DNA of 64,000 bases from a virus (IMGVR_UViG_3300037189_026210:7165-71164); one strand, 5' to 3'; shown: positions 3,595 through 9,500, counted from the first letter of the stretch. Numbers and translations are program-made. The notes: a model not told the origin generated them from the sequence alone.

Positions 3595-6500
3595 ATGGCA
3601 GAAGATATTCGTTTATCAGTAGGAGCGGACACAACGCAAATGGAATCGCAGATAGCTAACGCTGCGCGTAAGGCTACTGTCGTAATTAGACCAACTATTG
3701 ATTCAAAAGGTCTTGAAAAGATTAGCGCTCCACTTGGTAGAATTACTGGTCAAGCAGACGAATTCTCAAAATCGATGGAAGCTGCAAACGCTCGCGTACT
3801 TGCGTTCGGCGCATCTGTTGGAGTATTAAATGCTGTAGCAAAAAGTTTTCAGAATATAGTTACTGCTAGTACTCAAGTTGAAGCTTCACTTAAAGAAATT
3901 CAAGTAGCCACTGGAGAAACAAGCGGTAATTTAGAAAAGCTTGGAAAGGGAATATTTGAAGTCGCAAGATCTACTGGGCTATCTTTTAAACAAGCATCTG
4001 AAGCTACGTTAGAATTTGCTCGTCAAGGTGGAACTTTAGAAGATTCCTTGATGAAGGCAAAGGCGGCACTAGTATTGACAAGAACTACTGGCTTGGATGC
4101 AGCAGAGGCAGTAAAGGGTCTTACAGCTGCTGTATTGTCATTTAATCAAGTTGGTTTAGATTACGAAACTGTCGTAAATAAACTTGCTGCAGTTGATACT
4201 AAGTTTGCAGTTAGTTCTAGAGATTTGATTGAAGGCATTTCTCGTTCAGCTTCTGTTGCCCAAGAAGCTGGAGTTTCGTTTGATGAATTAACAGCTTTAA
4301 TTACAACATTGCAAGAAAAAACTGCGCGTGGTGGAGCTGTAATTGGTAACGCTTTAAAAACAATTTTCCAAAGAGTTCAGACTACCGAAAATCTTGATTA
4401 TATTAGAAATTTAGGCATCGCAGTAAATGATGTTAGTGGTGACATTCTTCCTGCTACTACAATCATTAAAAAACTTGCAGATGAATTTCAAAATTTAGAT
4501 TCAGCAACAAGAAAAGGTCTTTTGATAAAGATTGGTGGTGGTTTTCAAATTGATAAATTAGCTGCACTTCTTAATGATATATCAAATGCTAATGGCACAT
4601 TCAATAGAAGTTTAGAGCAATCATCTAACGCTGGAAATCAAGGTTTTAAAAAGTTAGATGAACTAAATAAAACAGTTCAAGCTTCATTTGATAGGCTGAC
4701 AACTTCTGGAACTCAGTTTGCCGCAACCATTGGTAAGGTTGCTTTTTCAGATGATTTTAGATCTATTTTAAATAAGACCTCTTCTTTTCTCGAATCTTTA
4801 AATGAAAGTATTTCTGGTGGAGAAGAAGGTGGCGCAACAATCGGGAAGGCGATTATTAAAGGAGTAGGTGCAGTTATCACAGGTCCAGGTGCTCTTTTAA
4901 TTGCTGGTCTTGGTATTAAACTTTTTGGTGATCTTGCTAAATTTGGAGTTGACAGTTTAAAGAATCAACTCGGCGTAACTAATGTTAAAAAAGAACAACA
5001 AGATATAGAAAAATCCATACTGGGTTTATTGCTTCAAAATACAGCAGTTCAAAGTAAAATTGTTTCTCTGGAAGGCAATAAAACCGCACAAGCTGAATAT
5101 CTTTTAGGTTTATATTCTAAACAAGCTGCAACCTTGGAAAAAATGTCCAAACTAAGTAAGGACATTGGGCCATCAGTTTATCAGGGTGGAATTAGATTAA
5201 CTGAGGAAGGCACAAAAAACGTTAAATCAAAAACTGCTGCTGGTGGCTACATGTCTAAAGATGCTGCCAGAAAAATGGAAATGCAAGAAGCTCCCGCTGG
5301 CGCTTCCATAAGAGAAATTTCTAATTTTAATTTTGGCCCAACAGAGGGCAGAGGAACGATGATTGTTAACTCAATGGAGTCAGTACATAAGACTCCAATG
5401 GGAGATTTTGTTATTCCATCTTACTCTAAAACTAGAACTGGAAAGCCAACTTTATTTTCGGCTTCTGGATATGTGCCAAATTTTGCGGAAGAAAAGCAAA
5501 AAGAAAATCTATTAAAAAATTTAAACATTGATGGCGGTGCTTATTCATTCGCTGGATTAACTATAGGCGGAACTGGCTCTAAGGCTGTTAGAGCAAAAGA
5601 AGTAACTCCACAAGTTCTTTCGCAAATCAAAGACCCAGTTTTATCAGAAGCGTTATCTAAGTATAGCAAACTTAATTTTTCAAACGTAAATGTCGGAAAC
5701 ATTTACAGAAGGCGTGACGAGAATTTAGATTCTCTTGAAGCAAGCGAACAGGACATCAAAAATCATTTTGTCAAAAAGGCAAACGACGCTTTAAGTCCCC
5801 AAATAGGAACTTTCATAAAAGATGAACTAAGTTCATTGGGTATAAAGCCAACTGCAACAATGCAGTTGATGATGAACAGGGGCAAAAAATTTGATTTAGT
5901 TAATGACAGCATGGCGGGAACATTTTTCGAGACGATGCTCAAAATGGCAAACATGTCTGCTGAAGATGAAAATTTTGGTCAGTTTTTCAACGACTCAAAT
6001 AGTAGATTCGATATTTATGGATTAAAGCCAGACATTGCAGAGCAATATGGATTGCCTAAAAAGTTTTGGGAATATGTTGAAATTAAATCTTCCGAAAAAG
6101 CTTTAAATGACGAGTTGGGTACAAAATTTATACAGCAGCTTTCTCAGTCTGGAGGTGAATCTTTAAAGTCTAAATTTTTAGCTCAAGCAAAAACTGGAGC
6201 TGGAGGATATGTGCCAAATTTTGCAAAAGAAAAAATTTCTGCCCTTAAAAAGGGGGGCAAAGGTGGTGGCAATTTAGGATTTTATTATGATGATGGAGCT
6301 AAAGAATCTGATGATTATTTAGAATCTGGAAACGTAACAATAAAAAGAAAAAAGAATAATAAAAATGCAATTGCGTATAGGAGCGATGCAAAGGAATTAA
6401 TTAATGACGCGAGAAAAATAGGCAGTTATTCAAACATTAAAAATACTTATGGATCTTATTTAAGCCCTAAATTTGAATATGATAAAATTTTAGATCCCAA

Positions 6501-9500
6501 CACAAAAGAAAGTTCTTTGGGTGGTTTAATTAGCAATTTACAGGGAGCGATTGCAGAAAAGGAATTTAAGGATCAATTTGCCGCTTATGTAAAAGTAGAA
6601 GATTTTAATGCTGGAATCGATTTTCATGATAGCAATAAAAAAAGATTAGTAGAAATAAAAGCAAGAAGAGCTGCTCTGGGACAAAAAGAAGCCAATAACA
6701 AAGTTTTAGCTTTTTTAGGCTCTGAAGAAAAAGGACAAAGAAAAAATAATCAATCTGAAAATTTAGATTCTTTATTGAAAGATATTGATTTTACAGTTTA
6801 TGAATCTAATTATGATTTAAAAACAGCAGCAAAAGGTTATGTTCCCAATTTTGCGGGAACTACTAATTTTGAAGGTTCCGCATCTAGATACGGTTATAAA
6901 ATCGGTCAAGTTTACAATAAAGGCGAAGAAGCAATTAAGGCCACATTTAATAATCCAACTACAGCTTTTAGTGGAACTGTAACTGGTAAAGAATCTTACG
7001 GGCGTAAATATGGAGTCACTGTTGATGAAAAAGGAATTATCGCTTCAATTTTAGGAAATAATACTTTTGTTGCTGGAAAGGATCAAAGAAGAGTGTTAGA
7101 AAGTTTGGCCACCAGATTAAGTTCGCAAGGAGCAATGGTAAAAGGATCTGGATTTAATATAGCTGGTCTTCAAGGAGGAAGACTAGCAACGAATCCAGAT
7201 CAAGTAATAACTGCTAACATAAAAGGAAAATTTAAAAAAATTGATTATGAAAAACTTGATAAAATATTCCCCCGATTCTGGAAATCAAAAGGTTTAGGAG
7301 ATGTCTGGGAAAAGACTAAACTCGCTGCTACGTACAAAGCCTCTCCAACCAGTTATTCTGAAATTATAAAAGATCGCCCAGATTTGCAAGAAACTTTAAG
7401 TTCTTCAAGCTTGCTTAGACAAAATAACACATTGCTGAGAGATGCTGCAGTAGAAGCTGTTTTAAAAAGAGATCCAAGTGTTGCTGGATTTTTAGTTGAT
7501 ATAGCTAATAGCGGTGATGAAGCTTTTTTAAAGCAACAGGGGTATGGCGGCGCAGGTATTAAATATGCAATGCCGTTTTCTGGTAAGCCTTTTTCAGATA
7601 TTGAAAATAAAGCCGTAAAAGAAGAAGAATACAAGTTAAGAAAAGAATATCAACAAAAAGGTGTATTCTACGGAGATTTCTTGGCTGAGAAAGAGAAATA
7701 TTTAAAGTTTGGAAAGAATTGGAAATATGCTTCTGGAAGAAAATTCTTGCAACCAGATGGAGCTAAAACTGCAGCAAAAGGTTATGTTCCAAATTTTGCA
7801 AGTGGAGATGTTGATGGTGATGGAATAGTAACTAGAAACGATCCATTTATAAAAAAATTAATGGATAGTGCGAAGAAATTCTCTCCAGTTGGAAAAGAAT
7901 TGGCAAATAATATCATTGGCAACTTATTAAATTTACCTGAAGGTATAGACGTATTTGAAATAATTGAAAAATTAAAATTTGCAATGAAGGCTCAAGAGCC
8001 GTTTTCTGAATTGAACAGAATTAAAGAGCAGGCAGAATTTGCAAGAAAATATCCTAAAAAAGCTGCAAGAATAAAAGAATATTTAGAAGCTGAAGAGGCG
8101 AGAAAAAGAAATAGAACTGCTGCCAAAGGTTATATTCCAAATTTTTCAAGAGAAGCTATTTTAGATGCTATAGGTCGCGAACAAAATGAATCTGGTTTGC
8201 CATTATCTGCAATTAAGGTAGTGCAAGACTCTCGCGTGCGTGGGCCTAGGAATCCCAATGGCTATGCAGTAATAAATAATCGTGATGAGCCAGATGGTAG
8301 AGTTCCAAACTTTGCTGTTCCATCTGGCGATTTAGACCCAACTGCGGCTATAGAAGAATCTCTAAAGGGATTAAAAAATAGCTCATTAAGTCTTAATGAC
8401 GCCTTTAAGAGAATTGCTGAAAATCTTAACGTAAGCGGAGAAAAGGTGGCTCAAGTTTTTGACAAGATGAATTTGAGCGGAAGTGATGTCACAAGCACTA
8501 ATCAAACAGCCGCAGCAAATTCAGCTCAAAATACTAAACAGGAAACTAAAGAAGCTCAAAATAAAAAAACTACAAACGAAAAACAAAATAAAACAGTACA
8601 AGATTCTTTATACACTTTAATTAAGTGGCAAAGTGCAGTTTCTTTGGCGAGTGGAGTTATAAGTTCTTTTGGAGAGAATGGTAAAGTAGCTGCTGAAGTT
8701 TTAACTGAACTTTCTTCTATTGGTTTATTATTTACGCAAGGCAAGGAAGTATTAGAGGGGTTTACGAAAGATAGAAGTTCTGGAGCTGGAAAAGCTTTGA
8801 GGCTTGGCGGTGCTGGTAGGGACGGAGCTGCTTCACTTTCATCTTCATTATCAATAGCTGGAAACTTTGGAAGAGTTGCTAATACTGCTGGTGTTGGTGT
8901 TGGCGGGGCAATTGGAGGTATTGCAGCAGGTTTAGCTGGTCCAGCAGCTGCAATTTATGCAACATATAAAATTATTGACATGGGAAATACCATATATAAA
9001 AAATATGGAGAAACTGCGGATAGAACTGCTGATGCCCTTGGAAGATTAAATGATATACAAAAAACCTACACTTTAAATTTAACTGAAGAACAAAAAGCCA
9101 AATCTGAATCTTTTGTTAAAAGAGTTGGAACTTTTGAAGCTGCAACAGCTTTTGATAGGGCGTTTAATTTTCAAAATTTAAATCCTTTAGATAAAACTAC
9201 ACAAACAAAAAATGCGCTTCAGTCTTTGGGTTTAGAGGGATCTGTAAATACAGGTATTCTTTCTGGTTTAACTCAAATTGTACAGCCTGAAGCAGAAAGA
9301 GAGTTTACAACAGAAAGAAAAAAGGGCAATAAACAAATTACGCAAACTAAAATAATAGATAGAATGGTTGCTGAAAAAATAAATCAAATTGCAGAAGAAT
9401 CAAAAACAAATTTTACAAATTCAAAAGAATTAGAAGATTACAGAAGGAATCCTAAAACTGCAGCTTTTGATATTGTTTCTTTAATAAATCCGCAACTAGA

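Follow-up and report, generated by a model that had tools for sequence, protein, structure and literature searches.

A short motif fences exchangeable predicted domains in the tape measure proteins of an uncultured siphophage family

A motif-fenced array in a tape measure protein

The stretch of viral DNA analysed here (IMGVR_UViG_3300037189_026210:7165-71164; 64 kb, referred to as the window) belongs to an IMG/VR record of 71 kb that is rated 52% complete. Its largest open reading frame (ORF) encodes a protein of 3421 amino acids (aa), identified below as a tape measure protein (TMP). Within this protein, a series of cassettes is delimited by copies of a short motif, GY[VI]PNF[AS]. An earlier note, made from the sequence alone, had described the array as a candidate polyprotein of injected effectors and had proposed that the motif is a protease cleavage or docking site that doubles as a recombination site. 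The analysis presented here partly supports that interpretation as a whole.

Identification of the ORF product relies on several matches. Pfam places PF10145 (PhageMin_Tail) at aa 122-315 with an E-value (E) of 3.5e-27 and a score of 96 bits (cut-off, 33.2); beyond this domain, no other convincing Pfam match was obtained in the protein. PHROG families of TMPs cover the N-terminal 550 aa (best E 1.5e-46), and phrog_13338 matches at aa 2903-2966. The second ORF downstream (14679-15698) resembles the gpM-like minor tail family PF05939 (E 8.6e-7, under the curated cut-off) and is followed by an ORF for a 1607-aa protein with a Laminin_G_3 domain. Taken together, PF10145, the PHROG families, the downstream tail genes and a lambda-type C-terminus (see below) indicate the TMP of a lambda/TP901-like long-tailed phage. 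We therefore assign the predicted product to an uncultured siphophage of the lambda/TP901-1 type.

A regular-expression scan of the TMP finds the core G[YR][VI]PNF[AS] at aa 625, 871, 1081, 1396, 1512 and 1568, corresponding to nucleotides (nt) 5467, 6205, 6835, 7780, 8128 and 8296. Given the composition of the protein, 2.7e-5 copies are expected by chance; 20000 shuffles of the TMP produced two matches altogether, and never more than one per shuffle. The relaxed core [YFRH][VIL]PN[FY] is confined to the TMP ORF when all six frames of the window are scanned, and a DNA pattern for the motif occurs in the 71-kb record only at the five GY[VI]PNF sites. The TAAGGY sequence at the head of the array is a decayed copy, relatives carrying a full GGYVPNL at the corresponding place. 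All seven positions (Table 1) are exactly those given in the earlier note. Spacings between motifs are about 69, 235, 199, 304, 105 and 45-49 aa, in agreement with its cassette lengths, the last of which had been put at 49 aa. The note also held that helical TMP sequence resumes behind the array. By a heuristic measure this appears to be so: of the seven 100-aa blocks that make up aa 1901-2600, five have a Pro+Gly content of 2-6%, a sixth has 6% and block 2401-2500 has 12%, compared to 8-17% in the array. The helical part, approximately 1800 aa, contains no copy of the motif by the regular-expression scan.

The motif is not peculiar to this virus. A word-indexed search with aa 540-1620 yielded 68 TMPs, including that of the window, ranging from 1926 to 4015 aa; every one carries the motif, in 2-9 copies. 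A degenerate DNA pattern for AAxGY[VI]PNF was found in at least 119 IMG/VR stretches. Among the matches listed, all 119 loci have one long motif-bearing ORF; in 111 cases this ORF is homologous to the N-terminal core (N-core) or the C-terminus of the window TMP, and the remaining eight are mostly cut off by the ends of the locus. Pooling all sequences gave at least 890 unique instances in at least 316 ORFs (1-10 copies per ORF), with the consensus A(0.68) A(0.74) x G Y/F(0.92) I/V(0.98) P N F/Y(0.98) A(0.74) and basic residues just upstream. As the pooling pattern fixed P and N and restricted the position before the aromatic residue to G or A, the informative frequencies are those of Y/F (0.92), I/V (0.98) and F/Y (0.98), along with a G that is nearly always present. 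Contigs bearing relatives of the TMP reach about 157 kb. From these comparisons, AAxG[YF][IV]PN[FY]A appears to mark a large uncultured TMP family. Since the motif is kept in TMPs that are otherwise only about 25% identical, it is probably under strong selection at the protein level throughout this family.

Searches of wider collections agree with this picture. Used against 1.84 billion representative sequences, aa 540-1620 matched 166 proteins at E of 0.001 or better (phmmer). Among the 150 matches listed, long TMP-like proteins predominate, many of them exceeding 1,000 aa. A substantial minority consists of short proteins, from 59 aa up to a few hundred, each aligned over a single piece and probably a fragment. 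In the majority of phmmer matches only aa ~1500-1580 are covered, the last mini-module of the array. No match to the array (aa 503-1635) was obtained at E 1e-5 among 50,697 phage records (tblastn), which thus include no cultured relative with the array. The N-terminal 700 aa matched 261 of these records only through a generic core (aa 20-402) at 23-27% identity. Neither the motif strings nor motif-fenced TMP cassettes were found in a literature search of main texts.

The array is flanked by two hydrophobic Gly/Ala-rich segments. Of the 68 family TMPs, 66 have such a segment before the array, 48 have one after it, at a median distance of 224 aa from the last motif, and two have one inside it. 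If both segments insert into a membrane after ejection, the entire array would lie on one side of that membrane. The window TMP has no Cys and only four His. Cys is likewise absent from 64 of the 68 TMPs, with a median His count of 2, a depletion that may reflect unfolded passage through the tail and the periplasm.

Further towards the C-terminus lie two Gly-rich modules of the lambda gpH type. The first is colinear with gpH 733-785 in a pairwise high-scoring segment pair (HSP) that by itself lacks significance (E 1.9); the second aligns to gpH 747-774 with a pairwise BLASTP E of 3e-4 and is nearly invariant across the family. The family profile also matches the solved TMP 8zdo_S at the Gly-rich C-terminal module (E 4.8e-9). 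The two modules begin FASGG and AAGGYV, resembling the first half of the array motif.

On the other side of the TMP gene, a 280-aa ORF (1431-2273) is separated from it by a single 392-aa ORF (2329-3507) with a weak Ig-like CarboxypepD_reg match. A two-ORF frameshifted chaperone pair is not evident upstream of the TMP, and neither of these ORFs matches a PHROG. PHROG and Pfam searches of the four ORFs upstream returned nothing useful, tail tube and chaperone genes not being recognised among them.

Table 1. Coordinates of the TMP gene and of features within it (window numbering); L001, L002 and L003 are IMG/VR relatives
Feature	Position (nt)	Strand	Remarks
TMP gene	3595-13860	+	3421 aa; PF10145, PHROG TMP families, gpM-like PF05939 gene downstream
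Hydrophobic Gly/Ala-rich segment before array	4849-4929	+	aa 419-445; Kyte-Doolittle scan
Degenerate motif copy 0, TAAGGY	5233-5250	+	aa 547-552; regular-expression scan
Module s0	5251-5457	+	conserved stretch of ~65 aa, copy 0 to motif 1; jackhmmer: 79 loci
Motif 1, SASGYVPNFA	5458-5487	+	regular-expression scan; pLDDT <50
Cassette B	5488-6189	+	aa 632-865; predicted alpha/beta; E..D..ExK; family-constant as B/G/Q superfamily
Motif 2, TGAGGYVPNFA	6193-6225	+	regular-expression scan; pLDDT <50
Cassette I	6226-6819	+	aa 878-1075; predicted alpha/beta; GxxGE..D..ExK; position variable in relatives
Motif 3, TAAKGYVPNFA	6823-6855	+	regular-expression scan; DNA homology to L001 stops at 6854
Cassette D	6856-7764	+	aa 1088-1390; well-predicted alpha/beta; weak RES/ADP-ribosyltransferase resemblance
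Motif 4, TAAKGYVPNFA	7768-7800	+	regular-expression scan; DNA homology to L001 and L002 resumes at 7765
Cassette E	7801-8112	+	aa 1403-1506; predicted helical; opens with DVDGDGxVTRND loop
Motif 5, TAAKGYIPNFS	8116-8148	+	regular-expression scan; DNA homology to L003 resumes at 8115
Mini-module A	8149-8295	+	aa 1519-1567; most widely conserved piece of the array; found in 109 loci
Motif 6, GRVPNFA	8296-8316	+	fixed variant RDEPxGR[VI]PNF; end of array
Hydrophobic Gly/Ala-rich segment after array	8899-8955	+	aa 1769-1787; Kyte-Doolittle scan
First lambda-gpH-like C-terminal Gly-rich module	12301-12495	+	FASGGPIKGGSG..DDVPAMLMGGEYVI..FASGGLVG; aa ~2903-2967; phrog_13338
Second lambda-like module	13471-13602	+	RRAAGGYVAGNG..DNVPAMLNGGEFVV; aa ~3293-3336; BLASTP to lambda gpH

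Cassette folds and exchange at the motif

Structures of the array were predicted with AlphaFold2 in two overlapping pieces, aa 620-1090 (17-row alignment) and aa 1076-1600 (16 rows). The first alignment drew on 16 of the 67 relatives, selected for cassette B and then for I/J/X/Z, and the second on 15 of the 67, selected for D, E or A; as rows were whole proteins, stretches of non-homologous cassettes are noisy. Cassette B is modelled as an alpha/beta domain with block-mean pLDDT mostly ~70-85 (51-69 in the middle helices), cassette I as an alpha/beta domain with pLDDT ~75-92, and cassette D as a 300-aa alpha/beta domain that is for the most part at ~80-93, two loops being low. Mini-module A is predicted to form a helix and two strands in a hairpin (pLDDT 59-75), and cassette E low-confidence helices (pLDDT 40-64). 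In both models the motif regions fall below 50. These alpha/beta and small-module predictions indicate that the cassettes are not ordinary extended TMP helix. Between the two hydrophobic segments, the first third of the protein is thus read as a string of independently folding domains, s0, B, I, D, E and A, of which the models cover B to A, each fenced by motifs that sit in flexible linkers.

The biochemical nature of these domains can be suggested only in part. Foldseek searches of PDB and BFVD gave no significant match for the modelled cassettes. VIA-align scores were middling and all below the guide value of 8, so that fold assignments are leads only; the weak matches are to nucleases for B and I, that for B having been barely tested, and to RES/ADP-ribosyltransferase (ART) folds for D. 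Patterns of conservation bear on the nuclease lead. In 46 sequences of the B/G/Q superfamily, the elements aG..fE, fD and e.K are kept, with E, D and K at 90% or more and the glutamate of ExK at 60-90%. In 18 sequences of the I/J/X/Z superfamily, GalgE, Df and e.k.r are kept, with GxxGE and D at 90% or more and ExK at 60-90%. In both superfamilies the conserved residues follow the order of the PD-(D/E)xK signature. B and I may thus be nuclease-like, as leads only.

Cassette D weakly resembles RES/ART domains in its predicted fold and has no Pfam match. Its conserved columns (T..GT, aSiLGxN, YEKL) could not be mapped onto the R-E-S, R-S-E or H-Y-E set. All four His of the TMP, located by eye in the translation and not by script, are outside this cassette, which argues against the H-Y-E type. 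Cassette E opens with DVDGDGIVTRND (7801-7840), conserved in 13 relatives, and this segment looks like a Ca-binding loop of the EF-hand or dockerin type. A GNAT domain (PF00583), absent from the window TMP in the Pfam search, is carried by four of the 68 TMPs (P0010, P0011, P0021 and P0032) in a cassette of 188-196 aa, family O, placed between two motifs. In all four the match exceeds the Pfam cut-off (20.7 bits); it lies at aa 1788-1857 of P0010, with 33.3 bits, and at aa 2017-2082 of P0032, with 30 bits. P0010 and P0011 also carry a 634-aa cassette of family U whose content was not recognised.

To compare the arrays of the family, 236 cassettes from the 68 proteins were clustered by BLAST and the clusters compared with hhalign. 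B, I, D, E and A fall into separate clusters, with mutual hhalign probabilities of 2% or less. Homology between s0 and A, suspected by eye, received no support (hhalign 2%). Three elements are constant across the family: s0, the first large cassette (B~G~Q, with hhalign probabilities of 95% for B~G and 89% for B~Q) and the last mini-module, A. The D/H/L/U types are partly constant in that they have a common N-terminal sub-domain. Position 2 is variable and can be occupied by I/J/X/Z, M, T, R, S or K, and cassettes F, E, O (the GNAT family), V and W are optional.

Differences between relatives consist of whole cassettes, joined at the motif. In pairwise BLAST, homology stops at query residue 877, the end of motif 2, and resumes at residues 1071-1077, 1391 or 1507, the starts of motifs 3, 4 and 5. 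Among proteins P0001-P0040, of which P0001 is the window TMP, 2044 of the 4296 HSP ends in array regions are inside a motif window, compared to 7.5% of random positions; these ends are not independent, the sequences being related. At the DNA level, homology to L001, L002 and L003 is lost at 6854, 6187 and 6180, respectively, and regained at 7765, 7765 and 8115; each of these six inner boundaries coincides with a motif or lies within ~20 nt of one. In P0003, identity to the window TMP is 97% in the N-core and 93% in B; I is replaced; D, E and A are 100%, 73% and 86% identical; the first helical part is 25% identical. In P0019, the N-core is 53% and B 39% identical, I and D are absent, E and A are 88% and 89% identical, and the first helical part 21%. 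The helical part is mosaic too, its segment C1 being 25% or 80% identical in proteins whose N-cores are 97-99% identical. Thus, to judge from these alignments, recombination is not confined to the array and the whole TMP is mosaic.

Do these junctions reflect a dedicated DNA site? The first two full motif copies share GGATATGTGCCAAATTTTGC exactly, and those at 6823 and 7768 have two mismatches in 35 nt, just as the earlier note had it. Identical codons among the copies of the window number 53 of 84, when 41.3 are expected from codon usage; over 107 genes, the count is 1073 of 2069, when 964 are expected. DNA conservation of the motif is therefore mostly amino-acid conservation plus codon bias. 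With motif codons not unusually conserved and the helical part mosaic as well, the position of the junctions is no proof of a dedicated DNA site. We read the junctions as the likely product of a short shared sequence and of selection for in-frame, domain-preserving recombinants.

The evidence above bears unevenly on the cassette claims of the earlier note. That cassettes share no extended similarity, that they would prove to be domains (at least B, I and D) instead of extended helix, and that their number and identity would vary between homologues with breakpoints at the motif all find support here. The polymorphism it envisaged holds for the middle cassettes and fails for s0, the B/G/Q cassette and mini-module A. 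Enzymatic domains, which the note had described in TMPs as usually cell-wall hydrolases, are borne out by the GNAT of relatives, which is no wall hydrolase, and not by a GNAT in the window TMP itself. As for the motif being a recombination site, the junctions do lie there and no special DNA element is needed to account for them.

Comparison with known systems

TMPs that carry enzymes are known. The TMP of mycobacteriophage TM4 contains a wall-hydrolase motif. T5 pb2 is cut after R1127, between a hydrophobic stretch and a muralytic enzymatic domain, so that the enzyme is separated from the rest (PMC10038345), and gp96 of Thermus phage P23-45, published in 2024, is a working virion RNA polymerase fused to the TMP (PMC10770324). 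Lambda gpH is cut in its Gly-rich C-terminal region, just upstream of the module, neither the catalyst nor the exact site being known (PMC12617516). As in T5, TM4 and P23-45, the window TMP would be more than a ruler and would carry folded enzyme domains into the host. The T5 cut frees an enzyme domain (PMC10038345), and a comparable event is proposed below for the window TMP; P23-45 illustrates that a large DNA-acting enzyme can belong to a TMP (PMC10770324). These enzyme-bearing TMPs differ from the present one in having one fixed enzyme each, whereas here five to six modules are present and are exchanged at a ten-residue motif. The candidate module types also differ: nuclease-like, RES/ART-like and, in relatives, GNAT, not wall hydrolases. 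The array motif itself was not seen in T5 pb2, and lambda gpH has only the half-resemblance AxGG[YF][VT]G. Around the T5 cut, aa 1120-1135 of pb2 (L130) read ..NSFVPR/AEGGMMYPG.. (slash, cut), where aromatic-V-P-x loosely echoes [YF][VI]PN.

Viral polyproteins provide a second comparison. In potyviruses, for instance, the NIa sites are conserved, heptapeptide-scale sequences located in exposed linkers between unrelated folded domains. The likeness is in one conserved site repeated between unrelated domains in linkers; the difference is that the window protein is a structural protein of a double-stranded DNA phage for which no protease was found in the searches detailed below and whose cleavage is putative. 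Polymorphic toxin systems, said to have been described by Zhang and colleagues in 2012, reportedly exchange enzymatic domains by recombination at conserved flanks. The modular exchange of domains at conserved flanks is common to both systems, but the cassettes here are internal and multiple as opposed to a single C-terminal tip. At the sequence level, phmmer against the 1.84 billion representatives revealed no cassette shared with stand-alone toxins or other delivery systems. Immunity genes did not turn up, no search having been aimed at them.

Closest in domain content are the polyvalent proteins, huge virion-associated proteins with unrelated catalytic domains, among the commonest of which are ARTs, GNATs, nucleases and peptidases (PMC5512222, Iyer, Burroughs, Anand, de Souza, Aravind 2017). 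Their authors predict that they come into the host alongside the DNA and are then freed by proteolysis, and liken them to viral polyproteins (PMC5512222). Here too a very large phage protein may contain similar kinds of domains, represented by weak fold leads and, in relatives, by the GNAT. Unlike typical polyvalent proteins, which have an embedded zincin-like MPTase or other peptidase, the window TMP showed none in the Pfam search. Nor is a fencing motif described in the available portion of that study (PMC5512222), in which the term "tape measure" occurs 0 times; in the present case, the carrier is the TMP itself.

Candidate roles of the motif

The reading we favour, tentatively and at somewhat less than an even chance, is that the motif is a processing signal at which the TMP is cut into separate proteins. 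It is favoured because of the cuts in T5 pb2 and lambda gpH, the sites of viral polyproteins and the case of polyvalent proteins. Cleavage would occur at the motif while the tail matures or once the TMP has been ejected. As the TMP exits the tail before the DNA does, the cassettes would come into the envelope or cytoplasm of the host already made as enzymes; that they arrive there at all we infer solely from two things, the established ejection of TMPs and the P23-45 precedent. Lack of Cys and scarcity of His make an embedded Cys or His protease unlikely, and the cut would therefore come from a protease of phage or host acting in trans, or else from self-cleavage that depends on Asn, between the Asn and Phe of PNF. 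Self-cleavage at an Asn-Phe bond occurs in tetravirus capsids, which the Asn-aromatic pair of the motif recalls: the Asn was fixed by the search pattern and the residue that follows is F or Y at a frequency of 0.98. As the only sequence common to unrelated cassettes, the motif would also be the joining point of viable in-frame recombinants, and the cargo would be shuffled in this way.

A number of points weigh against processing. Searches of the 71-kb record (52% complete) for three protease families, Peptidase_S78, Prok-JAB and NLPC_P60, found none of them; and no Pfam peptidase was detected in the TMP at E up to 1, a search that a divergent peptidase may escape. With ten near-invariant residues, the motif exceeds what many protease sites require, and such a length would suit binding equally. 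Some copies are only two residues away from a predicted folded element in the AlphaFold2 models, tight for a protease. The four-residue resemblance to the T5 site could be due to chance. Cuts at every motif would separate the N-core from the helical ruler part. Finally, no relatives of the cassettes outside TMPs were found at the sequence level by phmmer, hence no independent sign of an effector role.

Protein-level invariance of the motif, its position in flexible linkers and a number of copies equal to that of cassettes plus one fit a processing site and a docking peptide alike, being typical of multivalent binding motifs. We regard it as possible rather than probable that the motif docks, from its linkers, onto a conserved partner, be it the tail assembly chaperone, the inside of the tail tube wall or further chains of the TMP, and that the TMP remains uncut. 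Tube polymerisation would then proceed across globular or unfolded domains, and the cassettes would enter the host within an intact TMP. This would be in line with P23-45, where the TMP enzyme is pictured as acting with a TMP-formed pore and processing of gp96 is unreported in the available part of the paper (PMC10770324). It would also be in line with the resemblance between the first half of the motif and the start of lambda-type modules, the lambda region staying bound in the tip complex (PMC12617516), as well as with the failure to find a protease by Pfam in the TMP or, for the three families above, in the 71-kb record. However, the 1800 helical residues lack the motif, so it is not a general chaperone- or tube-binding signal. 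The AlphaFold2 models, for their part, show no docking of the motif onto neighbouring domains of the same chain. A complex prediction combining the two upstream ORFs with the segment motif 5-A-motif 6 scored 0.00; run without controls, it is evidence neither way.

Two other explanations appear harder to sustain. The cassettes might serve the virion and not the host, for example as DNA-binding nuclease derivatives holding or guiding the leading end of the genome or as assembly spacers or plugs, with the motif as a conserved domain-boundary element. That B/G/Q and A are constant across the family is more easily explained by a structural or core role than by an arsenal that is polymorphic; the confinement of cassettes to TMPs in sequence searches points the same way, and the incomplete conservation of ExK (its glutamate at 60-90% in both superfamilies, its lysine at 60-90% in I/J/X/Z) is compatible with inactive, binding-only derivatives. 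We nevertheless consider a virion role improbable, as phages with N-cores 97-99% identical differ by gain, loss and replacement of middle cassettes, which sits badly with a fixed structural role, and no virion-structural role is known for GNAT or RES/ART-like domains. Very improbable, in our judgment, is that selection acts on the motif chiefly as DNA, to maintain a hotspot of recombination with no function of its own in the protein. The location of DNA homology junctions at the motif and the slight excess of identical codons would accord with a hotspot. Yet the amino acids are invariant while about half of the codon pairs differ, near the expectation from codon usage; the motif persists in TMPs with ~25% identity elsewhere, indicating selection on the protein; and the selection for in-frame, domain-preserving recombinants noted above would likewise be expected to place junctions there.

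In its most far-reaching form, the processing reading makes of this TMP family a programmable polyprotein. The motif would be cut by a dedicated protease, or would cleave itself at the invariant Asn; nuclease, NAD-targeting and acetyltransferase effectors, loaded in the tail lumen, would be freed into the host ahead of the genome; and cassettes would be swapped at the motif. As a whole, this scheme strikes us as rather unlikely. If true, it would amount to effector delivery by phage tails built into the ruler itself, analogous to the cargo of type VI secretion systems (T6SS) or of extracellular contractile injection systems (eCIS).

TMPs are generally regarded as rulers and channel formers carrying at most one wall hydrolase. 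The new element here is a combination: a TMP serves as carrier, it holds several cassettes that can be exchanged, and a single conserved peptide fences them. A widespread uncultured family with 1-9 exchangeable modules fenced by a single peptide would extend the current picture of TMPs, and the tail lumen would become a general route for the delivery of pre-made proteins. The motif offers a defined, ten-residue handle on TMP processing, whose catalyst and exact site are unknown even in lambda (PMC12617516). Should it be a portable cleavage or loading signal, foreign proteins could be loaded into phage tails.

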